Assembly: GCA_032718475.1 (NCBI GenBank)
Contig: JAUCBJ010009060.1
Span: forward strand, 72,065 to 136,064
Reading direction: 5' to 3'
Source of the DNA: Nemertoderma westbladi
Lineage: Eukaryota; Animalia; Xenacoelomorpha
DNA length: 64,000 nt
Part shown: one piece after another, positions 2,998 through 61,089 of the stretch
How positions within the stretch are numbered: the first letter of the stretch is position 1
Layout: every line of letters starts with the position of its first letter
Program-made: the position numbers and the translations under genes
Notes under the pieces: model-generated
What the model saw: the letters and a program-made list of their open reading frames with translations, nothing else
What the model was told of the DNA's origin: nothing
Databases searched by the model: none

Positions 2998-3084
2998 GGT
3001 TCAGTAGCTCAGTCGGTAGAGCGTTGGAAATTATATGTGTAGTAGGTATTGAGTTCGAATCCTAGTAAGTGCGAATTATTTTTT
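2998..3084 (+). promoter_or_regulatory. tRNA-like Pol III internal promoter cassette in LTR U3 (also in LTR2 ~18054 and LTR3 ~35300)
   Basis: A box TAGCTCAGTCGGTAGAGCG (D-arm GCTC/GAGC), B box GAGTTCGAATCC, then TTTTTT; acceptor and anticodon stems do not pair, so not a functional tRNA. Confidence 0.7.
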
Positions 3085-14384: not shown

Positions 14385-15045
14385 TTAGGAGTTTACAAAT
14401 AGATTTCCACGTACCTGTACACCGTAGTAAGGACAGCGGTAGAATTCCATTGTCTTTATATGTGAACATTGAGGGTAGTACCCTTATGTGTCACATAGGA
14501 GCGGGATTTGTAGGTATAAGAAATGGAATTCTACTTGGAACTCACAATATTGAGACATTTTCGAAATTTTAGACAATCCATTTGGATTTGAAAAATTTTT
14601 AAAATTTTCTCCAGTGAATAGATTTCAGGGTACAGTCGGGTGGAACTTAAAATTAGAGAAACAAGAGAGGAAGACTTGCGAGCCTTTCTTAAAATTTTAA
14701 TTAAATTTTACACGGTCTTGTTTCAATAAGTTACGTCAATAAATAGACTCCCCTATATTTATTACTAATTCTTGATTGCTTATTTTCTGATAATAGTTTG
14801 GGATCAAAAGGTGAGTATTTTAGACTCACAGCCAGTTTAGCCCAAATTCGTTTTTATTTCGGCAAAAAATTTTAGATAAGAAGCAGCGTGTCATTAAAGA
14901 AACCCTAGATCTTAGGCTATGGGTAGGAGGTTAGAGCGTTGTCGAGCCCAAAGGGCAGACGAAACTCTCACGTCTCCTCACAACTAACTACAAACTCTGT
15001 TGTATTCCCTCTAGTAGTAATGATTATGTAACTACACCCCTAATT

Positions 15046-19816: not shown

Positions 19817-20622
19817 GTAGGAATATGTTTTACTGAACTACGGTTCGGTAGGACTAAAGTTATTTGAAAATTTTGTATTTTGAGGTAAAAATTTATATTT
19901 GATTAGCTAAGTGCTAATTTTTTGAAATAAAATTTGATTTGAACCGCGTGTAAAATATTTTGGAATTGAATACCGGTGTTTAAAAGGGTTTAAATACCAT
20001 ATTGTACCGGTACAAAATTTTCGTAAAGTAAAACCTAACTCTTTTGTTTTTCAGGATTCAGAACTCATTTCTAGACTGTAACGGGAGCAAGACCGTGTTT
20101 AGCAAGTTTGGGAGATAGATAACTCAACAACTTTGGTTGGGAAAATCGCGCTTCGTCCGCAACGTTAAAAACGGAAAGGTTCACGTCCGGTTTGTATCTG
20201 GGAATCTGTTTTTCTGGAGAATTATTGGAGTGGGTGAGTTCGAAAAGTTGCATAAATAAGTTAGGCATTACCGTATTAGTTAAAATTATTGTGGGTTCCA
20301 CTGTCTCAAGTATTTATGCATTCCGTATGATTTCTTTGTTCATTGCTGAATTAGTCCGTATTATTGTATTTAATTTACCTTTTGATAACGCATATCGTTA
20401 TCCGATTTATTTGTTATAAAATTGGCCGCTAGGCTAATTTTATTATATACTTATTCCGTGACATTTATTTGCTGTAAAATTGGCCGTTTAGGCTAATTTT
20501 ATCCATCTGCTATAAAATCGGCCGGTAGGCTAATTTTATATGACTGTAATTAGTACCGTTTAGATAAACTACGGTAAGTTTGATACTTTGACACTCACTT
20601 TACTTGACTTACAACTACCGAA

Positions 20623-26600: not shown

Positions 26601-29600
26601 ATCATGCTTGTCAAAATTGAGCCGATTGTTCGATCCGTTAGGATTCATCAGTCCAGTGATACTGCAAGCCCGCATTTATATGCGCAGTATTTGGAAGGTT
26701 GGACTAACATGGGACGAGCCGATCTCATCAGACCAAGTGGACTTATGGAAGACCTGGGAGGCGGAATTATCTTCGCTAGAGGATTATTCCATACCCAGAG
26801 TTTACTTTCCATTACAAACTACATTTCCTGACAACTTGGAATTACATTGTTTTTCTGACGCCAGTGACAACGGTTTTGGTGTGGCAGCGTACTTGCGCAG
26901 ACAAGTAGACTCAGAAGCATTCGATGTTTCGCTCATTACTTCTAAGGCAAAAACAATGCCTACTAAGTATATGACGACACCACGAGCTGAGCTACAAGCC
27001 GCAACCCTGTCAACCACCATCGTGAACCTTATACAGACAGAATTACAGTCAAGTTTACAGATATTTTATTGGACTGACGCGACGTTGGTTTTATTTTACA
27101 TAAACAACGACACACTTGAATTCAAGACATTCGTAGCTAACCGTCGCGCAGAAATTCTAGACCGTTCAATAAAAGAGGATTGGCGACATTGTCCCGGACC
27201 ACAAAACCCAGCTGATATTGCGTCGCGAGGAATGATGCCCGAGGAATTCTGTAAACCGGAAAACAAAGAATTTTGGCAACACGGACCCCAATTCTTGCAG
27301 AAATCGACACAAGATTGGCCTCCGTTATACGACAACAAATCTAATACTATCCCTAAGGACGCCGAAATCAAGAAACCAAAAAAGGGGAAGGCAAAGAAAA
27401 AGACGACGGCGACAAAACTCAAGAAAAAACCGAAGGCGAAATGGAAAGATATAACTTCAAAGGTCAAGAGAGGAAGACTTGCGAGCCTTTCTACACCAGA
27501 CATATCGCCAGACGGTCAACCAGACACGTTACTAGACGATCAACCAGACGTTTTGCCAGACATATCACAAAATGTTCTACCAGACACTAGTGACATACTG
27601 ACAAACAGTAAAGCCGCAGTTTCCCTATTGGAGCGGCCTTCTATTGACAAACAACCAGATGCGTTACCAGACGTATCACCAGACACATTACTAGACGGTC
27701 AACCAGACGTTTTGCCAGACATATCACAAAATGTTCTACCAGACACTAGTGACATACTGACAAACAGTAAAGCCGCAGTTTCCCTATTGGAGCGGCCTTC
27801 TATTGACAAACAACCAGATGCGTTACCAGACGTATCGCCAGACACGTTACTAGACGGTCAACCAGACGTTTTGCCAGACACGTCACTAGATAATTCGCCG
27901 GATGTTCCGCGAAACATTTTACCAGACATGTCACAAAATGTTCTACCGGACATTAGTAATGTATCGACTAACAGTAAAGCCGCAGTTTCCCTATTGGAGC
28001 GGCCTTGTATTGACAAACTACCAATTTTGACACACTTGAGCAACCATAAGCATGGTGAAACCTCATGTATTACAGATGTGGGTAGTACCTACGCTAATGT
28101 AAATACAGGTGTTACTTTGCGCTCAAGAGACATACCGAACTTGCAACCTATGGTGAGACCTGGGATTAATGTCGGCAGAAAAATAAGTTTACCGAAACCT
28201 GCTGACCCCATAGAGTTCAAACCACCATTAACGATCGACTTACAAAGTACCGACAATCAAGGTAAGAAGACGAAGAAGGACAAATTACTTGTAGACCCGG
28301 ACGGATCAACAGTCAACAAGGGAATACTTACCGGCGGACCCGTGGGCCCTTCTAGTAATTCAAAACCTTCCAAAATCTCCATTGACTTACCTGATGACGT
28401 CACAAATACTCACATCGACCGGATTGTAAACTTAACAGACTCTTGGACAAACGCTTGCCGAAAATTAGCGTGGATTGTACGTTTCGTACAATACGTTAAA
28501 GGCAAACGTGACTTTACACGTCGACTTACATTGGCTGAGATTGACAGGTGTGAGATTAAATTAATTCGCCATTACCAACTGCGATATTTCGCGCGCGAAT
28601 TCACATCTATAAATCAAGGTCAACCAATCAAGTCGTCACCAATACTGAGTTGGAGTCCGATTATTTATAATGGCTTAATTTGTCATAAATCACGGCTTCA
28701 AAACATTGACTTTAACACAAACTTTAGATACCCAATAATAATACCCCAACATCACAAACTACAACGTGCAATGATACTGGACGCACATTTACATCTGAAA
28801 CATGCTGGAAGACACCACTGTCTTTCTTACTTACGTACAAGATTTGTATTGATTAGACCTAGTAAAGCGTTAAGTTCAGTGACACGTACGTGTATTATTT
28901 GTAAAAAGGTACATTCTAGAATAGGTACCCAAGAAATGAGTGAACTACCACAAGCACGACTTCAAGCATTCAGACCACCTTTTACAGAGACTGGAATTGA
29001 TTGCTTTGGTCCCATACATACGAAACGTGGACGTATACTAGTAAAACGCTGGGGACTGATTTTCACATGTATGTCCAGTAGGGCAGTTCATATTGAACGT
29101 GTGATGGATCTTTCCACCAACGCGTTTATACTAGCACTGCGGCGATTTATCGCTAGACGCGGACTAGTAAAATGCTTGTACTCAGACCAAGGGACAAACT
29201 TTGTTGGTGCTCGGAATGAGATTGCTAGAGCTTTTAAGAAATTAGATCATGATCAAATCTCGAACGAACTACAACCTCACAAGATTGTTTGGAAGTTTAA
29301 TCCTCCAGATAGTCCTTGGAGAGGCGGAGTCTGGGAGAGACTGATTAGATCTATAAAGACAGCCATGGCAAAGGTCATTCCAGTAAACCACATATTGACA
29401 GACGACCAACTGACAACACTGTTTGTTGAAATCGAGGCAATACTAAATACTAGACCAATAGTATTAGTACCCGATGACAAACAATCTCAGTTTGCTTTGA
29501 CACCGGCACACCTGCTTATGCAGGCACCGACCACATTGACACCTATTTCTATTCCAATAGAAAGCGACAGCTACGGTAGAAAAGCGTGGAAAATCACGCA

Positions 29601-29922
29601 ACTACTGGCTAACAAATTCTGGGAAATATGGCAAAACCATTATTTGCCCTCTATTTCTGCCAGAACAACTTGGTATAATAACACCCGCGCATTAAAGCCG
29701 GGAGATCACGTGCTGTTAGCGGAAGTGAATCTAAAAAGACGCTTCTGGATAACAGGTGTAATTTTAGCCACACATCCATCTATGGATGGAGTGACAAGAA
29801 CTGTGACGGTACGGACAATTGACGGTCGTACAGTAGACAGACCGACTCAACGTCTCGTACTTCTTGAAGAGACTCATAACGAGTCTGGAGACTACAAATC
29901 TCCACCTAATACTAGTAAATAA
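20623..29922 (+). CDS. gag-pol: BEL/Pao gag-pol polyprotein (gag, aspartic protease, RT, RNase H, integrase)
   Basis: PPKFSG...W..F gag motif; three BEL-type knuckles (CQYC..H..C, CWRCTRHGHVRKDC, CPSCGRNHDGLLH); protease AILDSAS; RT YLPHH, DVEAMFHQV, FYVDD; RNase H LHCFSDAS, PRAEL, WTDA, NPADIASRG; integrase HHCC, GIDCFGP, SDQGTNF, GGVWER. Confidence 0.98.
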   Translation: MSDKQDYTKNTQTDYDSCDGDKSAAEEQQGKTREPTEPTPCASPVHPTGVPDAVVRGDGRTEDFLTVPQPRYRETDMVSSVGSQESVVRSVGGYMAHITRSIGEGQRILDGLTAPMSRFEFYTLQVRVQSKVYKSVDNLVGLQDLARQRQDMDTQLRILEKLMIAREKLIQFKSTIRQIQQEQADQLLGESVSDELLQPEEEQELYRLDGQLKHLTDHLRMCGEDVGDWETVPEYTRETSPVRIESAPGILNQSLVSIRSEINEVSMVTSEVARQQQQFYRQQHEMEEQTQLLMIQTAVEEEKIRVANVARISHLQEQAELEAAEMERLELDIAQQAAAAELAQRTATAELERQTAAAAAAAELERQTEAAELERKRLVSEARVEMKTRQIKAQQAIRQAEFEAQQQQTEQREKEVKLRFELEKRARELAETKENLDLLARDRSMRSRDGHDLDQIEVRHRQIQERLKEGSIGAPGRERQLVKDLCQRFPQVTPMFAPVTTKEPVSIAGSSDISPIHGATEHRFVIPDKFTPPRATSSPIPKVKVSNPPITDRSSLLTGPALLTTKQVSPPSTPKPVTHYAYPMTFRPTRPVDSNAVIRPPVQFTSQSTTSRKTCEPTEQRRPVDTRPFNQFTSQSTTSRKTCEPTEQRRTVDTRPFNQCTSQSTTSRKTCEPTEQRRLVDTRQFNQRASQSTTSRKTCEPTEQRRLVDTRQFNQFTSQSTTSRKTCEPTEQRRLVDTRQFNQFTSQSTTSRKTCEPTEQRRLVDTRQFNQRASQSTTSRKTCEPTEQRRSVDDVTKRNVRIRTTQRTRAHRPPYPDDSSTSSESDYPKREVFRTGAADEYKRERSDNSFIDNPPQNTPTQKALQPTDAISTQQFADIMRPVVNKLAQIEERLEEVQTDSSRNTEFEHNRHPKEPQRPVPSKHPSYQGKAPRRDINQITNQGRETLNVAEEIAKFAARQGLPVQQPPKFSGSSKHWHTFVDYIESQIAVCAFTSREKFNYLLQTLSGEPKRLAETFVGVPDAFELAYDRLTSIYGGTVSMARSVIEELCKGGAITKPVDLLKLADEIRNAITTLRSIGQLDYGNTPTVLLKIIGRLHHRLRREWRKIEYQREERGGFLKLEDVYLLISREAVVETRSNYTDQHIVAEGITLPSSNRQKPQTTSTKTATYTTPTESRQFSDGSRVSAPIGIKQTRQQLSTDFSGCQYCEHLGKRYIGHKLRGCRQFRELNSEERRLQIRPLDSCWRCTRHGHVRKDCPNTDTCPSCGRNHDGLLHTDSHTPTKRFAREHPEAAARCDAAYRKRESKTTPTFVTHIEDCFSEQSGSSDEELEDDDEYSNGDEQPSIALLTTDQLKGFSVIPIKITGTKGSKRIYAILDSASSHSYVDEKIADVVTDLKQGKRVSYTVSSMHGQRAIPVTRVKLNLDSLLPKSQHSERERSLLPFKDLTFAATKDFSNLLGPVPEQSLEDRKYFRHLGVPECPVNYRSVAMLIGTDQFNLHQVWETRPSAVVAGNAYACRTPIGWYTRAPVRTLNVSDEEDDVQSTCSLLTTNSIHSFSHDVDHTTLQSTKHDRRVTSMISSHKEQLIHKVSLELGEKTSQLEIPSTTDDRLASLPTPTTSTIPIDIDDDVLRNHQVEQAALDKELTEKTIRWLEQDTAEPGSYEPCMSEQEKQALKIMEDTIRQTKDGHYEVGMLWRSQSPKLINNYPLALRRLHSIRQRLLKDEKAHLQYNTQMETYLTKGYAIRMTNPEIVTNQTYYLPHHYVRHPDKPDKVRVVNDCAALFEGMSLNSELMDGPNMNNYLMGVIMRFRQRQVAFTCDVEAMFHQVKALERDRDSLRFLWYPEGDLSLPPATYQMQVRVFGARDSPNCTMYALKQAARDQKHLYDPEIIRIVERDFYVDDGLQSCDTVERATTVAHQLRDCLAGGGFNLTKFASNSAELVDSFGTTERGGGDIDLEFEPLPTTKVLGLFWDPNTDNFRVKVRLDSQENTLTKRSCLSKLSRLFDPLGFISPVILQARIYMRSIWKVGLTWDEPISSDQVDLWKTWEAELSSLEDYSIPRVYFPLQTTFPDNLELHCFSDASDNGFGVAAYLRRQVDSEAFDVSLITSKAKTMPTKYMTTPRAELQAATLSTTIVNLIQTELQSSLQIFYWTDATLVLFYINNDTLEFKTFVANRRAEILDRSIKEDWRHCPGPQNPADIASRGMMPEEFCKPENKEFWQHGPQFLQKSTQDWPPLYDNKSNTIPKDAEIKKPKKGKAKKKTTATKLKKKPKAKWKDITSKVKRGRLASLSTPDISPDGQPDTLLDDQPDVLPDISQNVLPDTSDILTNSKAAVSLLERPSIDKQPDALPDVSPDTLLDGQPDVLPDISQNVLPDTSDILTNSKAAVSLLERPSIDKQPDALPDVSPDTLLDGQPDVLPDTSLDNSPDVPRNILPDMSQNVLPDISNVSTNSKAAVSLLERPCIDKLPILTHLSNHKHGETSCITDVGSTYANVNTGVTLRSRDIPNLQPMVRPGINVGRKISLPKPADPIEFKPPLTIDLQSTDNQGKKTKKDKLLVDPDGSTVNKGILTGGPVGPSSNSKPSKISIDLPDDVTNTHIDRIVNLTDSWTNACRKLAWIVRFVQYVKGKRDFTRRLTLAEIDRCEIKLIRHYQLRYFAREFTSINQGQPIKSSPILSWSPIIYNGLICHKSRLQNIDFNTNFRYPIIIPQHHKLQRAMILDAHLHLKHAGRHHCLSYLRTRFVLIRPSKALSSVTRTCIICKKVHSRIGTQEMSELPQARLQAFRPPFTETGIDCFGPIHTKRGRILVKRWGLIFTCMSSRAVHIERVMDLSTNAFILALRRFIARRGLVKCLYSDQGTNFVGARNEIARAFKKLDHDQISNELQPHKIVWKFNPPDSPWRGGVWERLIRSIKTAMAKVIPVNHILTDDQLTTLFVEIEAILNTRPIVLVPDDKQSQFALTPAHLLMQAPTTLTPISIPIESDSYGRKAWKITQLLANKFWEIWQNHYLPSISARTTWYNNTRALKPGDHVLLAEVNLKRRFWITGVILATHPSMDGVTRTVTVRTIDGRTVDRPTQRLVLLEETHNESGDYKSPPNTSK
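22429..23000 (+). repeat. 84-bp coding VNTR in gag (7 copies; 3 copies at 7376-7612)
   Basis: 28-aa unit QFTSQSTTSRKTCEPTEQRRxVDTRxFN. Confidence 0.92.
27500..28020 (+). repeat. ~159-bp coding repeat in RNase H-integrase linker (3 units; 2 in copy 1)
   Basis: PDTLLDGQPDVLPDISQNVLPDTSDILTNSKAAVSLLERPSIDKQ repeated. Confidence 0.85.
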
Positions 29923-30520
29923 TTAGGAGTTCACAAATAGATTTCCACGTACCTGTACACCGTAGTAAGGACAGCGGTAGAATTCCATTGTCTTTATATG
30001 TGAACATTGAGGGTAGTACCCTTATGTGTCACATAGGAGCGGGATTTGTAGGTATAAGAAATGGAATTCTACTTGGAACTCACAATATTGAGACATTTTC
30101 GAAATTTTAGACAATCCATTTGGATTTGAAAAATTTTTAAATTTTCTCCAGTGAATAGATTTCAGGGTACAGTCGGGTGGAACTTAAAATTAGAGAAACA
30201 AGAGAGGAAGACTTGCGAGCCTTTCTTAAAAATTTTAATTAAATTTTACACGGTCTTGTTTCAATAAGTTACGTCAAAAAATAGACTCCCCTGTATTTAT
30301 TTCTAATTCTTGATTGCTTATTTTCTGATAATAGTTTGGGATCAAAAAGTGAGTATTTTAGACTCACAGCCAGTTTAGCCCAAATTCGTTTTTATTTCGG
30401 CAAAAAATTTTAGATAAGAAGCAGCGTGTCATTAAAGAAACCCTAGATCTTAGGCTATGGGTAGGAGGTTAGAGCGTTGTCGAGCCCAAAGGGCAGACGA
30501 AACTCTCACGTCTCCTCACA

Positions 30521-30552
30521 ACTAACTACAAACTCTGTTGTATTCCCTCTAG
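30521..30552 (+). promoter_or_regulatory. Putative splice acceptor for ORF2 subgenomic mRNA
   Basis: ACTAAC branch point, pyrimidine tract TATTCCCTCT, then AG ~30 nt before the ORF2 ATG; identical in copy 1 (14983-15014). Confidence 0.55.
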
Positions 30553-30583
30553 TAGTAATGATTATGTAACTACACCCCTAATT

Positions 30584-33500
30584 ATGGAGAAAGGGATACA
30601 AGGAGAGCCGAGATGGGGATATGATATCCAAGAGGAGGCAGCAGCGCCATTCGAAAGATTTGGAGCCAAGGATTATACTATATTCGGTATAAAAGAATTA
30701 TCGGAAAGTACAGCGAAACTCGCGAGAACTAAATATGACTCAAATGTATTAAAGAGAAGGCAAAACGCATTAAACGAAAGAATCGAAAGTTTGCGCCAAA
30801 CCTTCAACGAACTTTACCCGTACGACACTTTATGTGATACGGGAGATATTTGCGAAGACCCCGACACTGAAATTAGTCGTTTGTATCATACCATGCAATA
30901 CCTGAAGGCGCACGAACCTATGCCCGCGGTAAGAGATGAATTCGATGGAATGCATCTTTACAGACGAACTCGAGGGGACGATAGAGAAACCAAGGAAGCA
31001 TTTTCAGTTTATAAACTTTATTATCAATGCGGTTCTTGTATGCGCGAACAACGAAATGCGATTCCAATGCGTTTGAATAAGGAAAATCCCGAACCGATAT
31101 TGGCGAGGTGTTCGAACCATCAACAACTACGCTACCAGGAAGGAGGGTATCCTTTATCGAATCCATATCATTCATTTGCTATGACCGGACCAAAGGCGGG
31201 AGAAACTGTCATTTACCCACCTAAGGTTGTTGAACCCGATGTATTTGAACTTACGCTGGACGAGGCAAATCAGTCAACCCGCGAAAAGAAAGAAGCTCTT
31301 AGCCTATACAGAGCCTACAAGGCTTTCGAGAAAGGTGAGATGGAAGAATGGGGTGGAAGACTCGCGAGCCTACCTTGCCATTGGACGTCACACGATCAAA
31401 CTCCAGCTAAGGAGATGACACCGGAAGTTTTCGAGAGCATAAACTTTGCTCAAAACGTTATTCAGAGACTACAGATTGCATCCCCGGAGAGGACAAGAGA
31501 AATGCAACCGTATAGTACTTCAACTACGAAACCATTGAGTACGACACTCAACTTTCCTATTAGTATACCAGTCCGACAGGATACGACGTACGAAATACCC
31601 ATCGTGGATCATCCAGAAATCATTTCAAACTTGGAGTTTCTTCCTGCAGTTGTTTTCAGTGATATGAGTAAGATATATGATTTACGTAGACATATTACTC
31701 AAAAGGTCGTGTACAACGTTCCACCTCATATTCAAGACTTCAAGGAACTGGATAGAGCTGGTGCCGATATAGCTCCGAGTAATTTGAAGGGATATTTAAC
31801 CAAGACGATTCGTTTATGGATTGGAACCGGAACCTTCGAGTCGGATACAGATATTGCCGCGGATTGGCGAGGTAAGGTTATTAGCTTCGAAGATGATAAG
31901 GATATAGAGAAGATTTGGCAACCTTCGGAAGAATTGTTGGACGAATGGAATAGAACGTTTAGATCGTTTCAGGAAAATGGTTACATGTTTTACGATAACG
32001 AGGGCGGCAGTCATCAGCAGAGTTTGACTTCTAAGACTATACAGATTAGAGCGGCGGACGGAGTCTTGCACGTTTTCAGTAGACAGAGGAGCGACAAACG
32101 AATGCCGATACCTCCAGCGAATACAAAGCGACACCATCTTATCACCGACATAGTAAAGAAGATGGACCAAGCTTGTAATATTGACGCTAGAATGTTACCG
32201 AAGATGGTAAGAAACATGATTTTAGATAAAACTGTTGTAAAGATTGGATCAGGAGTAAGGGAGGACTTAATTAGCGACTTCGCCGGCATGACGGACAGCG
32301 ATGACCGACTACCGACACCTTACGTCGACACTCGACCTCTTATTTTGTGGTCTATAGAACAGGGATATTTTCGTGAGTATAATACTCAGAAGACTGGAAC
32401 TGGATACATTTCCTACCTGTTATTCAATTGGGATTATAAGGAAAATAAGAGAAACAAGTATATTGAAACTTATGGAGAAGGTGATACTCCAGATATGAGT
32501 GAGTTTGAATCACAGCTTAAATGGAGAGGATGCGTGTATTGGGCTATTACGTCACCTCCAAGAGCGGTCTTACAATATTATTTAGCAATAGAGTCGTCAG
32601 TGAATGTTTGCCTAATCGCCGACATTGTGTCTCGGACTCTCAAAAGACATCCACTTTGTCTCGGAGAAGATCATACTTTCTACATGGAAGGGAGAATTCG
32701 TACCGACGTGTTTAGACAATTCCTTGAACCCTTCTACAACTCCGACGCTCAGTGTAATGCCTTTACTCGAGCAGGATTTAGTATATTTCGAGACGTGTAT
32801 CTTCGCTGTGCGGGATCTCTTATCGAAAGACCATCTATGTTTACATTGTTACCCTATGAAGGAGAACGTATCGTGGAGATTACGGAAGAATCACGGCAGA
32901 CGCGCGCGCCTATCGGTCACCTTGGTGATGATTTCGAAGTAACTACTACGATCGCTGACGATCCTTTAGAGGAACTTCTTGAGATAGAAAGGAACCTCCC
33001 GAAGAAATCTCAGATGGAGATTCGACAACTTGAAGCAACAGATGCTATAGTTTGTATACAACCTTCAGATACCTACCAACCCATAGACCCAGATGATTAC
33101 GATTATAGTATGGGAGGAAGCACTCGACCGATTGGAGATCTTATATACGAACGAGTGTGGTACCCTGCCAATACGATGTGTAGTAAATGTGGCGTCGCTG
33201 GACATCATATGACAAAGTGCAGTGGAAAGCACATTACTACGACTCAGCTAATCTGTGGATGGTGTGGGGATCAAGGGTCTCATACCTTTTATACTTGCTG
33301 GAGATTTATGGCTCAATGTACTTATTGCAATATAAAAGGACATCGAGCATCTGAATGCCAACTAAGAGACATACCTTATGAACACGAATCTGTAAAACTC
33401 GTGAGGAAGTTATTTGATGAGTGGGAAGATTTAGCCGACGAACATGTATCGGCACAAAGAAGACGGTTTCCGATGAGAGCGCATCTCGGATTTTGGGCGG

Positions 33501-34309
33501 TAAATCCTCAAACGATGATGTCGGAAGGATATATCTCCGCTATGCCCCAATATGACGAACTTATCGAGGTAGTCGATATTTTGCCCCACGACAGCGGATT
33601 CCGAGTAGTGCGCGAGTATCTACTACAGATTCACCCGGATAACAAAAACACGTGGAATTTTCAGAAAGTCGTTAATCGCATTACGTATGGTGAATTCGAT
33701 CGTTTCCGAACTGAAAGGCGGAATAAAGGAGCTTGGTTAACCGTTGCATGGGCGTACCGAGCCGCGTTTTACCATAAACGTATACGAGCGAGCGTATTCG
33801 AGGAAGAAGAGGTCCTAGAGGCGACAAATATACCAGCCACTCCGGTTGCGCCGTCTGCACGTCACCCTCGGGAGGACGGACAGGGTAGGATCATACGGGT
33901 CCAGAAAGTGGGCCAACAATTAAAGAAAATTATTAATATAGAAGAACGCAAGGGAGTTGAGCCGACCATTCGAGTTACTCGGGATACGGTATCGCTTCCT
34001 AGAGAACCAGTAGGAGGATCGGGACATACACCAGCTGATCAACAGGGGGCGCAAGCTACTCTTGGGTCTGCGTCGTCCGCTTCTCGCGCGTTCCCAGACG
34101 TTCTACCAACTGTAGTGACAACTGATCGGTCACGAGGAATCGGTCGAGGTTTTGGGATGCCAAATAGACGAATTTGCGAGGAAATAGTCGCACCGTCTCT
34201 CAACGTCCAAACGAAACCAGTGACTCGCCCCACGAGTCCCATATCGCGAGCAAAGTCACCTGTGCGCAGTTTTCGAGGACGCGGCAGGGCTCGATCCACT
34301 AAGCGATAA
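30584..34309 (+). CDS. Accessory ORF2: DEDDy-type 3'-5' exonuclease domain + 3 CCHC zinc knuckles + RG-rich tail
   Basis: FYDNEG (ExoI), IQIRAADGVLHVF, LPKMVRNMILDKTVVKIGSGVRED (ExoII), YVDT, W...P....QYYLAIE (ExoIII); knuckles CSKCGVAGHHMTKC, CGWCGDQGSHTFYTC, CTYCNIKGHRASEC; no signal peptide or TM segment seen. Confidence 0.85.
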   Translation: MEKGIQGEPRWGYDIQEEAAAPFERFGAKDYTIFGIKELSESTAKLARTKYDSNVLKRRQNALNERIESLRQTFNELYPYDTLCDTGDICEDPDTEISRLYHTMQYLKAHEPMPAVRDEFDGMHLYRRTRGDDRETKEAFSVYKLYYQCGSCMREQRNAIPMRLNKENPEPILARCSNHQQLRYQEGGYPLSNPYHSFAMTGPKAGETVIYPPKVVEPDVFELTLDEANQSTREKKEALSLYRAYKAFEKGEMEEWGGRLASLPCHWTSHDQTPAKEMTPEVFESINFAQNVIQRLQIASPERTREMQPYSTSTTKPLSTTLNFPISIPVRQDTTYEIPIVDHPEIISNLEFLPAVVFSDMSKIYDLRRHITQKVVYNVPPHIQDFKELDRAGADIAPSNLKGYLTKTIRLWIGTGTFESDTDIAADWRGKVISFEDDKDIEKIWQPSEELLDEWNRTFRSFQENGYMFYDNEGGSHQQSLTSKTIQIRAADGVLHVFSRQRSDKRMPIPPANTKRHHLITDIVKKMDQACNIDARMLPKMVRNMILDKTVVKIGSGVREDLISDFAGMTDSDDRLPTPYVDTRPLILWSIEQGYFREYNTQKTGTGYISYLLFNWDYKENKRNKYIETYGEGDTPDMSEFESQLKWRGCVYWAITSPPRAVLQYYLAIESSVNVCLIADIVSRTLKRHPLCLGEDHTFYMEGRIRTDVFRQFLEPFYNSDAQCNAFTRAGFSIFRDVYLRCAGSLIERPSMFTLLPYEGERIVEITEESRQTRAPIGHLGDDFEVTTTIADDPLEELLEIERNLPKKSQMEIRQLEATDAIVCIQPSDTYQPIDPDDYDYSMGGSTRPIGDLIYERVWYPANTMCSKCGVAGHHMTKCSGKHITTTQLICGWCGDQGSHTFYTCWRFMAQCTYCNIKGHRASECQLRDIPYEHESVKLVRKLFDEWEDLADEHVSAQRRRFPMRAHLGFWAVNPQTMMSEGYISAMPQYDELIEVVDILPHDSGFRVVREYLLQIHPDNKNTWNFQKVVNRITYGEFDRFRTERRNKGAWLTVAWAYRAAFYHKRIRASVFEEEEVLEATNIPATPVAPSARHPREDGQGRIIRVQKVGQQLKKIINIEERKGVEPTIRVTRDTVSLPREPVGGSGHTPADQQGAQATLGSASSASRAFPDVLPTVVTTDRSRGIGRGFGMPNRRICEEIVAPSLNVQTKPVTRPTSPISRAKSPVRSFRGRGRARSTKR

Positions 34310-35180: not shown

Positions 35181-37077
35181 TATAGAATTATATTCTCTAA
35201 ATGCCGTGGATTTTCAAAATTTTATTTTATTCGAATTAACTTTGTAAAAGATTGCTTTGAATCCTCATTTGTATTTGTTATATCGCCTATCGGTCAAGTG
35301 GTTCAGTAGCTCAGTCGGTAGAGCGTTGGAAATTATATGTGTAGTAGGTATTGAGTTCGAATCCTAGTAAGTGCGAATTATTTTTTGTGCAGAATTTCAA
35401 CTCATTTAAATTAACCGCTACAAATTAATTGCATTTGTCTGTACCAATGAGACTGTAGTTATTTGATTGTAACCAATGTCGTGCAAGTTATATATTAGCT
35501 GGACCAATAGCTATCTTTAAAACCTTGTTAGAACCTATAGATCAATCGAGAATTTTCTCGATTGATTGCAGCACAAATTTGGTATAAAAGGGTGCGATTT
35601 GTTCATTAGTTATCTTTCTCATCTATGCTTCTCAGATTATCTTATCTTATCAATATTCTGTCGTGCTTAGTTTATTTCAGATTACATTGTATTATAATTA
35701 TATTTTCTGTAATAAAGTCAGAATTATCGCTAATCTGCTTTTCTATCTGTTTTACCATGGATTCACTACGGTGAACAAACCTAAGGGACAGGATGACCGG
35801 CTAGAGATCGGGCCGCAGCAATGAACGGGAACATCGGGGGAATGTAGACCAGAGACAACCCGCAATACCATCTTGAGTTATTCGCCCATCGCCTGAAAGG
35901 TTAGACAGCGTTCGATCCTTGCTACCTAAGTGTAAGACCAAAAGATCAAAAGGTAGAAGTAGTGACACGCTGTGAGCCTAAAATTACATCTTAGAGACTG
36001 TACTGTCTTGATTCAGGAAAAACCGCAGTAGACCTTCATATTCCTACGGGGGGGAGAGGGAAAGAGCGCAGGCAGATACTAGTACGCAGATAGGACGTAG
36101 GCACACCGGTACAAGGCATACACATTGGTTAGGGTGCAGCAAACTGTACGCCTAACTCTTGCTAAGTGCAGGTGTGTGTGCGACTATTTGTAGTACGACA
36201 GTGTCCATTGCATTATAACTTGTAGGCTAGGGGGGTTGCTGTGTTTTCACCTGAATTGGGATTGTACCGTTCAGGCGGTAGGGCAGTTTACAGCTAGGCG
36301 CAAATAAATTGAGGCTATTAGGGATACTAACATCTACCGTGTCCCCGCCAACGCCCTAATAGGAAGTTACCCGGACTACCTGGGTGACTAAAATTCTAGA
36401 TAAGAGCCAGGATAGCTATTAGTAACTGTACGCCTACAGTAGTAAACTAACACATCTCTTCTTAGTATCAGGGACCTGGTACCTAAAATTGCCGAATTCT
36501 GGGCGTAGCATTAACCTTATGCCTGAATTTGAGTCCTGGAAATACGCAAGAGGGGAAGGAACCTTATCATTCGTGAGTATTGGACCTACAAGTTACAAAA
36601 TTAGAATATTCGTAAAATGCACACCGTACCCAGTAATTATATATGTGAAGGAGCAAAACTGTTTTTGACCGTTCAGAATTAACACACGCGCGTTAGAAAT
36701 TATTTACACCTCAAAATATATAAAATTAACTTTCGTCCTTACTGTGCTTTGCCCGCTAGTTAGACATCTCCAAATCTCTGCCTGTACCTAGCTAGCGTCC
36801 CTTCGCCCAACCATATAAATCACACCGCGGCAAAGTATACGAGCCCTTTAGTCCGTCAGTGAGTCAGCCTGATTTTAGGATTCGCTGCGCGGGATTTTGT
36901 TTTATCGAAGTTTGTCTGCTCGTAGACTGTTTTCTGCCTCACCGGTTATAAGAGATCGATACTGCAATATATTCGCTTACTTAGAGTTTACTGTTTTGGT
37001 GAGAAGGTCGGATTTATGATTTGATTCACAAACTTTACAGTAGGATATTGCAGGTATTGTTACTGTCTCTTCGAATA
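35181..37077 (+). repeat. LTR3 (~1897 bp)
   Basis: Third direct repeat; similarity stops after ...CTCTTCGAATA. Confidence 0.88.
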
Positions 37078-37265
37078 AGTGTGCTACACGAGTGGTATGT
37101 TATAAGAACGGACAGTGTGCTGCACGAGTGGTATGTTACATGAACAAAATATAGCCACGAGGATCAGCGCATGGAAAAGTACATTGACAAAAGTACGTGG
37201 TCCCTTAAAACTGCACGCGAACTGCCTGTTCAGTAGAAATGGGTTAGATGGGAGAGTAAGCATCA

Positions 37266-37368
37266 GGGGCAAGTGGCTAAACTGGTTAGCGCTACTGATG
37301 AGGCCTGATAGGCTGAAACGTACGTATAGCGCTGGTTCAACCCCCGGTGACGTGCTTCCTCATTTTTT
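37266..37368 (+). ncRNA. tRNA-like Pol III unit (SINE-like) containing a minimal type I hammerhead ribozyme
   Basis: A box TGGCTAAACTGG; stem I AGCGCTA(37288-94)/TAGCGCT(37327-33); core CTGATGA; stem II GGCCT-GAT-AGGCT; GAAAC-GTAC-GTA; B box GGTTCAACCCC; T6 at 37363. Confidence 0.85.
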
Positions 37369-37646
37369 CCATTTCTGAACGAAACCATAATATTACATCA
37401 TGCTGATAAAAAACCGTATAGGGTATGTATCTTTTGCTGCAATAAAATTCCAAAATTTTATAAATATAATAATAATAATAATATAAAAAATAGTATAAAA
37501 TATAATACCGATTCCGTCTTTGATAAATTGTTGATGTTAATTGCTTTCAATTATTAAAATGCAATAACAATTATTTTATAATATACTAGGCGAGTAACGA
37601 ATTACATAATATTATGTATTTTAATTTATTGTCATCCTACATTATC

Positions 37647-40600
37647 CGGTTGTTATACACAACGACTATGGTCGTTATACACAAGGACTACGGTCGTTAT
37701 ACACAAGGACTACGGTCGTTATACACAAGGACTAAGGTCGTTATACACAAGGACTACGGTCGTTATACACAAGAACTACGGTCGTTATACACAAGGACAT
37801 CGGTTGTTATACACAAGGACTACGGTTGTTATACACAAGGACTACGGTCGTTATACACAAGGACTAAGGTCGTTATACACAAGGACTACGGTCGTTATAC
37901 ACAAGAACTACGGTCGTTATACACAAGGACATCGGTTGTTATACACAAGGACTACGGTTGTTATACACAAGGACTACGGTCGTTATACACAAGGACTAAG
38001 GTCGTTATACACAAGGACTACGGTCGTTATACACAAGAACTACGGTCGTTATACACAAGGACATCGGTTGTTATACACAAGGACTAAGGTCGTTATACAC
38101 AAGGACTACGGTTGTTATACACAAGGACTACGGTCGTTATACACAAGGACTACGGTCGTTATACACAAGGACTACGGTCGTTATACACAAGGACTACGGT
38201 TGTTATACACAAGGACTACGGTCGTTATACACAAGGACTACGGTTGTTATACACAAGGACTACGGTCGTTATACACAAGGACTACGGTCGTTATACACAA
38301 GGACTACGGTCGTTATACACAAGGACTACGGTTGTTATACACAAGGACTACGGTCGTTATACACAAGGACTACGGTTGTTATACACAAGGACTACGGTTG
38401 TTATACACAAGGACTACGGTCGTTATACACAAGGACTACGGTCGTTATACACAAGGACTACGGTCGTTATACACAAGGACTACGGTTGTTATACACAAGG
38501 ACTACGGTTGTTATACACAAGGACTACGGTTGTTATACACAAGGACTACGGTCGTTATACACAAGGACTACGGTCGTTATACACAAGGACTACGGTCGTT
38601 ATACACAAGGACTACGGTCGTTATACACAAGGACTACGGTTGTTATACACAAGGACTATGGTTGTTATACACAAGGACTACTGTTGTTATACACAAGGAC
38701 TACGGTCGTTATAAACAAGGACTACGGTCGTTATACACAAGGACTACGGTCGTTATACACAAGGACTACGGTCGTTATACACAAGGACTACGGTCGTTAT
38801 ACACAAGGACTACGGTCGTTATACACAAGGACTACGGTTGTTATACACAAGGACTACGGTTGTTATACACAAGGACTACGGTCGTTATACACAAGGACTA
38901 CGGTTGTTATACACAAGGACTACGGTTGTTATACACAAGGACATCGGTTGTTATACACAAGGACTACGGTCGTTATACACAAGGACTACGGTCGTTATAC
39001 ACAAGGACTACGGTTGTTATACACAAGGACTACGGTTGTTATACACAAGGACTACGGTCGTTATACACAAGGACTACGGTTGTTATACACAAGGACTACG
39101 GTTGTTATACACAAGGACTACGGTCGTTATACACAAGGACTACGGTCGTTATACACAAGGACTACGGTTGTTATACACAAGGACTACGGTCAACCAAGGA
39201 CTACGGTCGTTATACACAAGGACTACGGTCGTTATACACAAGGACTACGGTTGTTATACACAAGGACTATGGTTGTTATACACAAGGACTACGGTCGTTA
39301 TACACAAGGACTACGGTCGTTATACACAAGGACTACGGTTGTTATACACAAGGACTACGGTCGTTATACACAAGGACTACGGTCGAACCAAGGACTACGG
39401 TCGTTATACACAAGGACTACGGTCGTTATACACAAGGACTACGGTTGTTATACACAAGGACTATGGTTGTTATACACAAGGACTACGGTTGTTATACACA
39501 AGGACTACGGTCGTTATAAACAAGGACTACGGTCGTTATACACAAGGACTACGGTCGTTATACACAAGGACTACGGTCGTTATACACAAGGACTACGGTT
39601 GTTATACACAAGGACTACGGTCGTTATACACAAGGACTACGGTTGTTATACACAAGGACTACGGTCGTTATACACAAGGACTACGGTCGTTATACACAAG
39701 GACTACGGTTGTTATACACAAGGACTACGGTTGTTATACACAAGGACTACGGTCGTTATACACAAGGACTACGGTTGTTATACACAAGAACTACGGTCGT
39801 TATACAGTACACAAGGACTACGGTCGTTATACACAAGGACTACGGTCGTTATACACAAGGACTACGGTCGTTATACACAAGGACTCCGGTCATTATACTC
39901 AAGGACTACGGTCGTTATACAGTACACAAGGACTACGGTTGTTATACACAAGGACTACGGTTGTTATACACAAGGACTACGGTTGTTATACACAAGGACT
40001 ACGGTTGTTATACACAAGGACTACGGTTGTTATACACAAGGACTACGGTTGTTATACACAAGGACTACGGTTGTTATACACAAGGACTACGGTTGTTATA
40101 CACAAGGACTACGGTTGTTATACACAAGGACTACGGTTGTTATACACAAGGACTACGGTTGTTATACACAAGGACTACGGTTGTTATACACAAGGACTAC
40201 GGTTGTTATACACAAGGACTACGGTTGTTACACAAGGACTACGGTCGTTATACACAAGGACTACGGTCGTTATACACAAGGACTCCGGTGGTTATACACA
40301 AGGACTACGGTTGTTATACACAAGGACTACGGTCGTTATACACAAGGACTACGGTCGTTATACACAAGGACTACGGTCGTTATACACAAGGACTACGGTC
40401 GTTATACACAAGGACTACGGTTGTTATACACAAGGACTACGGTTGTTATACACAAGGACTACGGTCGTTATACACAAGGACTACGGTCGTTATACACAAG
40501 GACTACGGTGGTTATACACAAGGACTACGGTCGTTATACACAAGGACTACGGTCGTTATACACAAGGACTACGGTTGTTATACACAAGGACTACGGTCGT

Positions 40601-43600
40601 TATACACAAGGACTACGGTCGTTATACACAAGGACTACGGTCGTTATACACAAGGACTACGGTCGTTATACACAAGGACTACGGTTGTTATACACAAGGA
40701 CTACGGTCGTTATACACAAGGACTACGGTTGTTATACACAAGGACTACGGTCGTTATACACAAGGACTACGGTTGTTATACACAAGGACTACGGTTGTTA
40801 TACACAAGGACTACGGTTGTTATACACAAGGACTACGGTTGTTATACACAAGGACTACGGTTGTTATACACAAGGACTACGGTTGTTCACAAGGACTACG
40901 GTCGTTATACACAAGGACTACGGTCGTTATACACAAGGACTACGGTTGTTATACACAAGGACTACGGTTGTTATACACAAGGACTACGGTTGTTATACAC
41001 AAGGACTACGGTCGTTATACACAAGGACTACGGTCGTTATACACAAGGACTACGGTTGTTATACACAAGGACTACGGTCGTTATACACAAGGACTACGGT
41101 CGTTATACACAAGGACTACGGTCGTTATACACAAGGACTACGGTTGTTATACACAAGGACTACGGTTGTTCACAAGGACTACGGTCGTTATACACAAGGA
41201 CTACGGTCGTTATACACAAGGACTACGGTTGTTATACACAAGGACTACGGTCGTTATACACAAGGACTACGGTCGTTATACACAAGGACTACGGTCGTTA
41301 TACACAAGGACTACGGTTGTTATACACAAGGACTACGGTCGTTATACACAAGGACTACGGTCGTTATACACAAGGACTACGGTCGTTATACACAAGGACT
41401 ACGGTCGTTATACACAAGGACTACGGTTGTTATACACAAGGACTACGGTCGTTATACACAAGGACTACGGTCGTTATACACAAGGACTACAGTCGTTATA
41501 CAGTACACAAGGACTACGGTCGTTATACACAAGGACTACGGTTGTTATACACAAGGACTACGGTTGTTATACACAAGGACTACGGTTGTTATACACAAGG
41601 ACTACGGTCGTTATACACAAGGACTACGGTTGTTATACACAAGGACTACGGTTGTTATACACAAGGACTACGGTCGTTATACACAAGGACTACGGTTGTT
41701 ATACACAAGGACTACGGTTGTTATACACAAGGACTACGGTCGTTATACACAAGGACTACGGTCGTTATACACAAGGACTACGGTTGTTATACACAAGGAC
41801 TACGGTGTTATACACAAGGACTACGGTCGTTATACACAAGGACTACGGTCGTTATACACAAGGACTACGGTCGTTATACACAAGGACTACGGTTGTTATA
41901 CACAAGGACTACGGTTGTTATACACAAGGACTACGGTCGTTATACACAAGGACTACGGTCGTTATACACAAGGACTACGGTTGTTATACACAAGGACTAC
42001 GGTCGTTATACACAAGGACTACGGTCGTTATACACAAGGACTACGGTCGTTATACACAAGGACTACGGTCGTTATACACAAGGACTACGGTCGTTATACA
42101 CAAGGACTACGGTTGTTATACACAAGGACTACGGTCGTTATACACAAGGACTACGGTCGTTATACACAAGGACTACGGTCGTTATACACAAGGACTACGG
42201 TCGTTATACACAAGGACTACGGTCGTTATACACAAGGACTACGGTCGTTATACACAAGGACTACGGTTGTTATACACAAGGACTACGGTCGTTATACACA
42301 AGGACTACGGTTGTTACACAAGGACTACGGTCGTTATACACAAGGACTACGGTCGTTATACACAAGGACTACGGTTGTTATACACAAGGACTACGGTCGT
42401 TATACACAAGGACTACGGTCGTTATACACAAGGACTACGGTCGTTATACACAAGGACTACGGTTGTTATACACAAGGACTACGGTCGTTATACACAAGGA
42501 CTACGGTTGTTATACACAAGGACTACGGTTGTTATACACAAGGACTACGGTTGTTATACACAAGGACTACGGTTGTTATACACAAGGACTACGGTTGTTC
42601 ACAAGGACTACGGTCGTTATACACAAGGACTACGGTCGTTATACACAAGGACTACGGTTGTTATACACAAGGACTACGGTTGTTATACACAAGGACTACG
42701 GTTGTTCACAAGGACTACGGTCGTTATACACAAGGACTACGGTCGTTATACACAAGGACTACGGTGGTTATACACAAGGACTACGGTTGTTATACACAAG
42801 GACTACGGTTGTTCACAAGGACTACGGTCGTTATACACAAGGACTACGGTCGTTATACACAAGGACTCCGGTGGTTATACACAAGGACTACGGTCGTTAT
42901 ACACAAGGACTACGGTCGTTATACACAAGGACTACGGTTGTTATACACAAGGACTACGGTCGTTATACACAAGGACTACGGTCGTTATACACAAGGACTA
43001 CGGTCGTTATACACAAGGACTACGGTCGTTATACACAAGGACTACGGTTGTTACACAAGGACTACGGTCGTTATACACAAGGACTACGGTCGTTATACAC
43101 AAGGACTACGGTTGTTATACACAAGGACTACGGTTGTTATACACAAGGACTACGGTTGTTATACACAAGGACTACGGTTGTTATACACAAGGACTACGGT
43201 TGTTATACACAAGGACTACGGTTGTTCACAAGGACTACGGTCGTTATACACAAGGACTACGGTCGTTATACACAAGGACTACGGTTGTTATACACAAGGA
43301 CTACGGTTGTTATACACAAGGACTACGGTTGTTCACAAGGACTACGGTCGTTATACACAAGGACTACGGTCGTTATACACAAGGACTACGGTTGTTATAC
43401 ACAAGGACTACGGTCGTTATACACAAGGACTACGGTCGTTATACACAAGGACTACGGTCGTTATACACAAGGACTACGGTTGTTATACACAAGGACTACG
43501 GTTGTTCACAAGGACTACGGTCGTTATACACAAGGACTACGGTCGTTATACACAAGGACTACGGTTGTTATACACAAGGACTACGGTCGTTATACACAAG

Positions 43601-46600
43601 GACTACGGTCGTTATACACAAGGACTACGGTCGTTATACACAAGGACTACGGTTGTTATACACAAGGACTACGGTCGTTATACACAAGGACTACGGTCGT
43701 TATACACAAGGACTACGGTCGTTATACACAAGGACTACGGTCGTTATACACAAGGACTACGGTTGTTATACACAAGGACTACGGTCGTTATACACAAGGA
43801 CTACGGTCGTTATACACAAGGACTACAGTCGTTATACAGTACACAAGGACTACGGTCGTTATACACAAGGACTACGGTTGTTATACACAAGGACTACGGT
43901 TGTTATACACAAGGACTACGGTTGTTATACACAAGGACTACGGTCGTTATACACAAGGACTACGGTTGTTATACACAAGGACTACGGTTGTTATACACAA
44001 GGACTACGGTCGTTATACACAAGGACTACGGTTGTTATACACAAGGACTACGGTTGTTATACACAAGGACTACGGTCGTTATACACAAGGACTACGGTCG
44101 TTATACACAAGGACTACGGTTGTTATACACAAGGACATACGGTGTTATACACAAGGACTACGGTCGTTATACACAAGGACTACGGTCGTTATACACAAGG
44201 ACTACGGTCGTTATACACAAGGACTACGGTTGTTATACACAAGGACTACGGTTGTTATACACAAGGACTACGGTCGTTATACACAAGGACTACGGTCGTT
44301 ATACACAAGGACTACGGTTGTTATACACAAGGACTACGGTCGTTATACACAAGGACTACGGTCGTTATACACAAGGACTACGGTCGTTATACACAAGGAC
44401 TACGGTCGTTATACACAAGGACTACGGTCGTTATACACAAGGACTACGGTTGTTATACACAAGGACTACGGTCGTTATACACAAGGACTACGGTCGTTAT
44501 ACACAAGGACTACGGTCGTTATACACAAGGACTACGGTCGTTATACACAAGGACTACGGTCGTTATACACAAGGACTACGGTCGTTATACACAAGGACTA
44601 CGGTTGTTATACACAAGGACTACGGTCGTTATACACAAGGACTACGGTTGTTACACAAGGACTACGGTCGTTATACACAAGGACTACGGTCGTTATACAC
44701 AAGGACTACGGTTGTTATACACAAGGACTACGGTCGTTATACACAAGGACTACGGTCGTTATACACAAGGACTACGGTCGTTATACACAAGGACTACGGT
44801 TGTTATACACAAGGACTACGGTCGTTATACACAAGGACTACGGTTGTTATACACAAGGACTACGGTTGTTATACACAAGGACTACGGTTGTTATACACAA
44901 GGACTACGGTTGTTATACACAAGGACTACGGTTGTTCACAAGGACTACGGTCGTTATACACAAGGACTACGGTTGTTATACACAAGGACTACGGTTGTTA
45001 TACACAAGGACTACGGTTGTTATACACAAGGACTACGGTTGTTCACAAGGACTACGGTCGTTATACACAAGGACTACGGTCGTTATACACAAGGACTACG
45101 GTCGTTATACACAAGGACTACGGTCGTTATACACAAGGACTACGGTTGTTATACACAAGGACTACGGTTGTTATACACAAGGACTACGGTTGTTCACAAG
45201 GACTACGGTTGTTATACACAAGGACTACGGTTGTTATACACAAGGACTACGGTTGTTCACAAGGACTACGGTCGTTATACACAAGGACTACGGTCGTTAT
45301 ACACAAGGACTACGGTCGTTATACACAAGGACTACGGTCGTTATACACAAGGACTACGGTTGTTATACACAAGGACTACGGTTGTTATACACAAGGACTA
45401 CGGTTGTTCACAAGGACTACGGTTGTTATACACAAGGACTACGGTTGTTATACACAAGGACTACGGTTGTTCACAAGGACTACGGTCGTTATACACAAGG
45501 ACTACGGTCGTTATACACAAGGACTACGGTCGTTATACACAAGGACTACGGTCGTTATACACAAGGACTACGGTCGTTATACACAAGGACTACGGTCGTT
45601 ATACACAAGGACTACGGTCGTTATACACAAGGACTACGGTTGTTATACACAAGGACTACGGTTGTTATACACAAGGACTACGGTTGTTCACAAGGACTAC
45701 GGTTGTTATACACAAGGACTACGGTTGTTATACACAAGGACTACGGTTGTTCACAAGGACTACGGTCGTTATACACAAGGACTACGGTCGTTATACACAA
45801 GGACTACGGTTGTTATACACAAGGACTACGGTCGTTATACACAAGGACTACGGTCGTTATACACAAGGACTACGGTCGTTATACAGTACACAAGGACTAC
45901 GGTCGTTATACACAAGGACTACGGTTGTTATACACAAGGACTACGGTTGTTATACACAAGGACTACGGTTGTTATACACAAGGACTACGGTCGTTATACA
46001 CAAGGACTACGGTTGTTATACACAAGGACTACGGTTGTTATACACAAGGACTACGGTCGTTATACACAAGGACTACGGTTGTTATACACAAGGACTACGG
46101 TTGTTATACACAAGGACTACGGTCGTTATACACAAGGACTACGGTCGTTATACACAAGGACTACGGTTGTTATACACAAGGACTACGGTGTTATACACAA
46201 GGACTACGGTCGTTATACACAAGGACTACGGTCGTTATACACAAGGACTACGGTCGTTATACACAAGGACTACGGTTGTTATACACAAGGACTACGGTTG
46301 TTATACACAAGGACTACGGTCGTTATACACAAGGACTACGGTCGTTATACACAAGGACTACGGTTGTTATACACAAGGACTACGGTCGTTATACACAAGG
46401 ACTACGGTCGTTATACACAAGGACTACGGTCGTTATACACAAGGACTACGGTCGTTATACACAAGGACTACGGTCGTTATACACAAGGACTACGGTTGTT
46501 ATACACAAGGACTACGGTCGTTATACACAAGGACTACGGTCGTTATACACAAGGACTACGGTCGTTATACACAAGGACTACGGTCGTTATACACAAGGAC

Positions 46601-60806: not shown

Positions 60807-61089
60807 CAGACGACATAATTTTCACAAAAAAGGTAACTTTTAGTACAACAAATATTGTTTATACTTTCAATGAAAGCGATAACACTAAGAGACATAGTGA
60901 AAATAAAACTAAGGTAGATGAAGCGGATGTGCATTTCGTGGATAAAATTGGGGCTCATAAAAATGAGGATGATGTAGATATACACTTTGTCAAAAAAATT
61001 GACAAAAACTTACAACCCAAAACAGCTGATCTTGAACAAATTACCATATACCTAAATCAACTGAACAATGATCAGCCACCAAATGTCCT

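Follow-up and report, generated by a model that had tools for sequence, protein, structure and literature searches.

A high-copy repeat of Nemertoderma westbladi with a type I hammerhead motif between the boxes of a tRNA-type promoter

The DNA analysed here (the window, 64,000 nucleotides of Nemertoderma westbladi) is repeat-rich animal DNA in which a short segment combines a hammerhead ribozyme motif with the A and B boxes of a Pol III promoter. The locus raises the question of what kind of element carries this combination, and how such an element would be copied if the predicted cut falls inside its own promoter. An earlier note on this DNA had proposed a self-cleaving, tRNA-derived SINE or retrozyme in which the hammerhead replaces the anticodon arm of a tRNA-like unit. 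We conclude, with a probability of roughly 0.6, that the locus represents one dispersed, monomeric copy of an abundant, non-coding and non-autonomous retrozyme-type element of ~180 bases, likely Penelope-mobilised, with a captured tRNA promoter.

The hammerhead motif, its promoter frame and its setting

A type I hammerhead ribozyme motif occupies positions 37288-37333 of the + strand, to which all features of the repeat described below belong, and was identified using a structural descriptor with shuffle controls, the Rfam model RF00163 and the variants of the repeat family. The window copy contains a canonical type I core (CUGANGA, GAAA and NUH, with three helices and an open helix I), and each part was found where the earlier note had placed it. 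Helix I (37288-37294 with 37327-37333) has seven Watson-Crick pairs and can be lengthened by G.U pairing, in agreement with the 7-9 bp proposed. It is followed by CUGAUGA (37295-37301) and a helix II of 5 bp (37302-37306 with 37310-37314), the basal pair of which is indeed G.U in this copy. GAAA (37315-37318) leads into a minimal helix III of two pairs, A-U and C-G, closed by the palindromic tetraloop GUAC. Positions 37318-37325 form a perfect 8-nt palindrome, which would allow helix III to form between the two RNAs of a dimer, and GUA places the predicted cut at 37326/37327.

The type I descriptor matched the window once, at this site, and returned a single match in 300 dinucleotide-shuffled windows (none in 300 at stricter stem lengths). 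The other three of four core-pattern matches in the window belong to a 30-bp minisatellite and failed the stem test. The comparison with Rfam hammerhead models that had been suggested gave a full-length alignment to RF00163 (model positions 1-45 of 45 at 37289-37332, E 0.0043 with 196 bases as query), but the score of 21.6 bits lies below the gathering score of 34, the sequence scored being that of this copy with its minority G.U pair. No Rfam hammerhead was found at the gathering threshold over the whole window, and an E-value scan of 1.5 kb returned no hammerhead and two chance matches. The predicted fold of the 103-nt RNA that runs from the tRNA-like start to the T6 is as stable as that of shuffled sequences (z -0.07); helices I and II form in it with probabilities of 0.8-0.95, and helix III with a probability of 0.01 in the monomer model. 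Predicted energies (kcal/mol) are -9.8 for the self-duplex of the 8-nt palindrome and -42.4 for the cofold of two domains, compared with -16.4 for a single domain.

The canonical metazoan hammerhead is described with a helix I of 6 bp, a helix II of 4 bp and a helix III of 1-2 bp with a palindromic loop, and the Penelope minimal hammerhead with a helix II of 7-8 bp, a helix I of 4-5 bp and an unpaired base at 9/10.1 (PMC4209133). With 5 bp in helix II, 7 bp in helix I and no extra base at 9/10.1, the window motif has, judged by its sequence, the dimensions of the canonical metazoan (invertebrate) form, and it does not match the minimal Penelope-type hammerhead. In the case of coral and mussel hammerheads of the canonical class, cleavage occurred as monomers, and in the case of axolotl ones mainly as dimers (PMC7229834), so that both monomer and dimer cleavage are possible for the window motif. 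Cleavage as dimers, as suggested earlier, is therefore retained as one option that the palindrome would allow, but not as an obligate one. Furthermore, eight of nine Xenopus retrozyme dimers showed no in vitro cleavage (10.64898/2026.07.22.740005), and an intact-looking motif is therefore not necessarily a cutter.

As previously noted, the hammerhead is flanked by an A box (37274-37285) and a B box (37334-37344), both confirmed by consensus scan, and followed by T6 (37363-37368). The A box is a D-arm remnant, while the B box, a T-loop remnant, directly adjoins the 3' strand of helix I. The tRNA-like 5' start (37266-37273), which is the putative Pol III start region, was placed by its position relative to the A box, with tRNA position 1 at 37267. 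A type 2 promoter combined with a T-run terminator would yield a Pol III transcript that starts at ~37266 and stops at the T6 after ~100 nt. The two boxes are 48 bp apart, compared with 30-40 bp in SINEs (PMC7279448); an A/B pair at a spacing of 35-75 bp is expected 0.125 times per shuffled window.

Within the unit, two of seven acceptor-stem pairs and three of five T-stem pairs can form. Helix I overlaps the cloverleaf stems on both sides, the D-stem (3' strand) with its 5' strand and the T-stem (5' strand) with its 3' strand. A cloverleaf reading was therefore rejected, as the ribozyme occupies the D- and T-stem strands; ARAGORN reported no tRNA genes. The proposed replacement of the anticodon arm holds with respect to position, between D-arm and T-arm, but a cloverleaf is not kept: going by these pairings, the ribozyme is located where a tRNA has its anticodon and variable arms, yet is no graft on an intact tRNA, of which the promoter alone is left. 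The unit may bear a likeness to tRNA-Ala; a blastn search for the parent tRNA against phages returned one chance match (E 4).

The hammerhead repeat is part of a 570-base stretch that separates the last LTR of a BEL/Pao retrotransposon from a 22-bp satellite, and there is no second copy of it elsewhere in the window. The BEL/Pao copies are arranged in tandem (2871-37077, LTR-internal-LTR-internal-LTR), copy 2 containing an open frame of 3,104 codons (20608-29922) and copy 1 being frameshifted; the best named homologues are from sea urchin, mollusc and nemertean (37-41%, versus 28-35% for insects). A frame of 1,278 codons (stop to stop, 30473-34309) lies 3' of the BEL pol frame and has a broken counterpart near 14935-17055 in the first copy; it gave no Pfam or PHROGs match and an Atlas lead of 0.82 only. 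The three direct repeats (the LTRs, 1.9-kb) each contain a tRNA-like A box, a B box at 34 bp spacing and a T6, located at 35292-35376 and near 3005 and 18061, with a weak Rfam tRNA match (13.1 bits, E 2.9). LTRs bearing tRNAs are known from two non-autonomous groups, Helenus and Ajax (PMC10886601); the pol frame of the BEL/Pao element in the window, in contrast, is long and intact. The DNA from the LTR end to the hammerhead repeat includes a low-copy repeat (37078-37185, depth 20-340) with an internal direct repeat of ~25 bp. The satellite (37647-49264) comprises 531 copies at 95% match and begins 245 bases past the hammerhead repeat. Near the window end, a stop-interrupted LINE-type frame (60749-63490) encodes an Ulp1 protease domain (PF02902) followed by an RVT_1 domain, the best RT homologues being 25-37% identical.

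Copies, variants and limits of the repeat

The family was read via DNA contigs of four sequencing runs (X1-X4) aligned at 80% likeness. Six runs of one organism were indexed, of which these four, from three studies, contain part of the stretch; X2 and X3 represent one sample. In X2, 1,866 contigs align to 271 bases, 472 of them partly, which bears out the suspected multi-copy family and disposes of a single-copy sequence. Summed contig depth, which counts overlapping contigs repeatedly and gives an order of magnitude only and no copy number, is 5e4-4e5 over 37264-37393 in X1-X3 and 3e3-6e3 in X4; in the flanks it is 3-7 at 37186-37211 and 0-32 at 37420-37650. Allowing for overlap, the family would number between several hundred and roughly ten thousand copies. 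In X2, the 3' loose ends are AT-rich, long and mixed (median 160-211, agreement 0.45-0.53, among the six rows listed of 172), which indicates that the copies of the unit are dispersed.

The complete list of X2 variants at 1% or above contains 32 rows, of which four fall inside the ribozyme: 37299 (N7, 1.2%), 37308 (loop 2, 58%), 37314 (C, 72%, restoring G10.1-C11.1) and 37322 (loop 3, 14%). All four sites are thus at tolerated positions (N7, loop 2, 11.1 and loop 3); the chance of this is 0.001 if ten of the 46 sites count as tolerant, with the tolerant list having been chosen after the data were seen. At the same threshold, no X2 variant occurs at 37323-37344, which includes the B box, and the two in the A box (37279 and 37281) stay within its consensus. 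Across the four runs, the base of helix II is a canonical G-C in 60-88% of depth, with U at 37314 in the remaining 12-40%. The U is therefore a subfamily marker, and the G.U pair does not reflect CpG decay confined to the window copy.

At the CpG 37314-37315 the C side is variable and the catalytic G12 invariant (at the 1% level in X2). CpG-type changes of 1-2% occur 3' of the B box (37345, 37346, 37351 and 37354), and at none of the four CpGs within helix I or helix III does a change reach 1%, possibly as a threshold effect. Variants that would break the ribozyme were seen in X4, among the rows listed, at 37297 (6%, two contigs), 37311 (14%, three contigs) and 37328 (20%, one contig). No two-sided covariation in helices I-III was found among variants of at least 1%, these being pooled contig depths and not single copies. 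The repeat is real, multi-copy and constrained. Several diverged contigs match the 5' arm (see below) and the ribozyme, and diverge from the window copy just past the B box (37344-37352), while one variant insert has an altered 3' arm with T8. Both observations suggest further subfamilies.

The repeat extends on both sides beyond the 103 bases (37266-37368) to which it had been assigned. Contig cover begins at 37220 and drops to single-locus level past ~37401, giving a whole unit of ~180 bp (37220-37401); among 32 pieces listed of about 5,400, seven start at 37220-37222. Upstream of the predicted Pol III start lies a 5' arm (37227-37264) that is complementary to a 3' arm (37346-37381) holding the T6, and the latter is followed by an AC/AT-rich tail of ~20 bp (37382-37401). 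A first cluster of 3' ends is located at 37380, where 26, 34 and 23 contigs of X1-X3 have loose ends. The second, at 37397-37401, is represented in X2 by 17, 18 and 29 contigs with loose ends past 37397, 37398 and 37401 (median length 168-211, agreement 0.45-0.52).

The two arms are predicted to form 31 pairs (24 Watson-Crick and 7 G.U) at -31.2 kcal/mol, which was matched by one of 2000 shuffles and by one of 4248 other 45-mers of the window; the corresponding value on the opposite strand is -22.5. The majority letter at 37358 converts an A.C mismatch in the outer helix to A-U. In the loose-end consensus of X1 and X3 position 37239 is G, and its partner 37372 has a C variant at 7-12%, linkage between the two not being established. 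For the unit as a whole, the fold has only modest stability (z -1.49, 11 of 200 shuffles), and the predicted circular fold contains the outer helix, helix I and helix II with probabilities of 0.96, 0.73 and 0.94. The whole-unit RNA is predicted to form a rod, in which an outer helix of ~31 bp would close around the two boxes and the hammerhead between them, and helices I and II would stay free.

How the unit may be copied

Aligned depth over the 5' arm is ~1% of core depth, with a ~100-fold rise from 37262 to 37279 in X2, so that most copies may begin at the Pol III start. Alternatively, the arms would have diverged beyond the 80% likeness floor and hence not been aligned. Arm-like letters were found in the 5' loose ends before 37263 in 25, 38 and 29 contigs, and the X2 arm consensus differs from the window copy at seven of 30 letters. 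In X2, the best-supported 5' loose ends have a median length of only 27 and look like the arm, not like unique flanks. As these ends are short and conserved, the reading of diverged arms is favoured.

The rise in depth at the predicted start, the conserved A and B boxes and the dispersed monomers, with no tandem joint among the joints listed, would also be in line with a tRNA-headed SINE. Its transcription would start at ~37266 and read through the T6, and the uncut transcript would be copied by a LINE or Penelope enzyme; arm-bearing copies would represent source loci, and the hammerhead a passenger or RT-binding fold. We consider this unlikely. The T6 is the majority form (with T8 in the variant insert mentioned above), yet ~35 conserved bases lie beyond it. 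The best 5' loose ends are arm-like, while the 3' ones are long and mixed, and an untranscribed arm would lack a reason for pairing with the 3' arm. No target-site duplication of at least 6 bp was found at 18 boundary pairs of this copy (matches of 4-5 bp occur at four of the 18), nor does the unit match the LINE region of the window. A plain tRNA-derived SINE is likewise disfavoured by the internal T6 with ~35 conserved bases behind it and by the outer arms, the 5' one of which lies upstream of the start in at least part of the family.

The ends of the copies would fit the retrozyme-type element with a Penelope-like mode of insertion. They resemble a Penelope footprint in the two 3'-end clusters 17-21 bases apart, in the AT-rich flanks and in the lack of a duplication of at least 6 bp in this copy. 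In addition, eight of 15 joints listed of 24 connect opposite strands (six with one end in the 5' arm), as do six of ten in X2. For Penelope-like elements, tails and inverted 5' copies have been described (PMC8557442), as well as AT-rich, ATT-type targets, a reverse transcriptase that starts at two sites and a preference for uncut RNA, its main substrate (PMC11167929). The tail has ~20 bp where Penelope elements have 30-40 bp, the consensus of the AT-rich loose ends may represent a variant tail instead of target DNA, and the opposite-strand joints could arise from the inverted repeats of the unit itself. No Penelope partner was found among the 14 window ORFs scanned. A tandem (end-to-start) junction was absent from all ten X2 joints and from the 15 listed of 24, although short-read contigs and the 80% floor could mask one.

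Two 3' ends and inverted joints would similarly be expected of solo pseudo-LTRs, whereby an autonomous Penelope-like element with a tRNA promoter in its pseudo-LTR would have left the copies behind as 3' ends truncated on the 5' side. Type I hammerheads are found in Penelope pseudo-LTRs, and 5' truncation affects most insertions (PMC6765202; 10.64898/2026.07.22.740005). However, the helix sizes are those of a canonical retrozyme and do not match the minimal Penelope type (PMC4209133), there is no RT frame next to this copy, and long pieces carry unshared sequence past 37222 (among the 32 listed of about 5,400), which makes this origin distinctly improbable. Finally, a miniature DNA transposon with the arms as decayed terminal inverted repeats and a Pol III-driven ribozyme gene as cargo can be largely set aside. 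In its favour, the arms are inverted repeats and the 3'-end cluster at 37380 coincides with the end of pairing. Against it, seven of 31 pairs are G.U and the pairing is strand-biased, a better fit to single-stranded RNA than to DNA inverted repeats; copies also end at a second 3' site, 17-21 bases beyond the inverted repeat, and the 18 boundary pairs of this copy lack a duplication of at least 6 bp.

For the retrozyme-type element that we prefer, an RNA spanning the whole unit would be copied by a Penelope-like reverse transcriptase, and the Penelope-type RT/GIY-YIG enzyme would insert the copy into AT-rich DNA, starting at one or the other of two sites ~20 bases apart. The Pol III promoter would render every insertion transcribable alone; most transcripts would be short and terminate at the T6, and such an RNA could cut itself or serve as a dimer partner via the helix III palindrome. 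Because the 3' ~35 bases and the 5' arm lie outside the predicted 100-nt Pol III product, the copied template would have to be longer, and its source would be T6 read-through, Pol II or tandem units. As the A box, ribozyme and B box follow one another in the copies with no break at the scissile bond, the template was probably uncut or re-ligated (circular). In the case of retrozyme circles, a self-paired fold keeps the ribozyme intact (PMC7229834), and animal retrozymes, which are proposed to be Penelope-dependent, also occur as dispersed monomers (10.64898/2026.07.22.740005).

A pile-up of 5' breaks was observed beside the predicted cut, at 37326 in X2 (11 contigs, the best-supported after 37263), with further breaks at 37324 in X3 (seven contigs) and in one contig of X4, and with two joints at 37327. 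The breaks at 37324-37327 could be copies of cleaved RNA, or they may be variants with another helix II; the X2 consensus has hammerhead-like letters.

We also put forward, as an unlikely reading, a Pol III-driven circular-RNA retroelement that is cut inside its own promoter. Only uncut or re-sealed RNA would then give a working A-B daughter, and short T6-ended RNAs would trigger trans cleavage via the palindromic helix III. If this were true, cleavage and ligation would constitute a built-in checkpoint on transposition, and the locus would provide a natural hammerhead made from the D- and T-stem strands of the tRNA itself. The transcription of animal retrozymes and the role of cleavage and circularisation in their copying are standing questions: circles have been proposed as templates for retrozyme copying (PMC7229834), and cleavage was dispensable for a Penelope enzyme in vitro (PMC11167929). 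Because the predicted cut would divide the promoter, the type of RNA that was copied can be read from how the parts are arranged in genomic copies, and the family offers hundreds of loci or more for counting it.

Relation to known elements

A comparison with tRNA-derived SINEs (SINE2) reveals a shared A box and B box in a short, dispersed, non-coding repeat. The unit differs from these by the internal T6, by the lack of an A-tail and, in this copy, of a target-site duplication, and by a ribozyme that occupies the site of the anticodon arm and the variable arm. It also does not fit within one Pol III transcript, as expected of a SINE2: sequence is conserved to ~37401, past the T6 at 37363-37368 and hence outside the predicted transcript, and at least part of the family has an arm upstream of the start. 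Penelope-like elements share with the unit the palindromic helix III; two alternative 3' ends, AT-rich flanks, inverted partial copies and copying across an uncut ribozyme would be further resemblances (PMC4209133, PMC8557442, PMC11167929). In contrast to these elements, the unit has no ORF, its hammerhead is not of the minimal form, and its tail is ~20 instead of 30-40 bp.

The kinship with retrozymes and with the Schistosoma Sm-alpha repeats that had been proposed is upheld, Pol III boxes and a type I hammerhead being present in one repeat. Like metazoan non-LTR retrozymes, the unit has one canonical type I hammerhead with a helix III of 2 bp and a tetraloop, is non-coding, falls within 150-450 bp and occurs in many copies (PMC7229834; 10.64898/2026.07.22.740005). 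Further shared features are a self-paired monomer in which the ribozyme is left free (predicted here), dispersed monomers and the proposed Penelope dependence. Term counts of the main text of PMC7229834 and 10.64898/2026.07.22.740005 gave no mention of a Pol III promoter, whereas the unit contains one; and retrozymes are defined by tandem copies, whereas the unit is known as dispersed DNA monomers. Pattern scans found no relatives in metagenome contigs (0 and 0) or prokaryotic genomes (0). Two matches in viral contigs (1 and 1) were rejected, as the first (L001) lacks helix I and the boxes, and the second (L002) lacks the stems.

No natural hammerhead between boxes A and B was found in the literature searched, as judged by titles, term counts and the openings of abstracts outside subscription journals and Repbase. 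The combination of Pol III boxes and a hammerhead is already known from Schistosoma; it is the interleaved promoter-ribozyme layout that is unusual and was not encountered in the literature covered. Sm-alpha and Sj-alpha are, like the unit, high-copy non-coding repeats with tRNA-type Pol III boxes A and B and a type I hammerhead (PMC6765202, PMC2770079, PMC2576457). According to a review, the promoter of Sm-alpha precedes the hammerhead (PMC6765202), whereas in the window unit the hammerhead lies between the boxes and its cut would part A from B. A total of 2,342 tRNA-Gln predictions were classed as SINEs similar to Sm-alpha (PMC2770079), which suggests that the tRNA head of Sm-alpha is largely whole. 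The window unit, with its D- and T-stem strands used by the ribozyme and no cloverleaf, is set apart by this description, as well as by its internal T6 and by the lack of a tandem array among the joints listed. Compared with the 335 bp of one Sm-alpha-type unit (PMC8490949), its ~180 bases place it among the smallest such units, easily built for cleavage and ligation tests.
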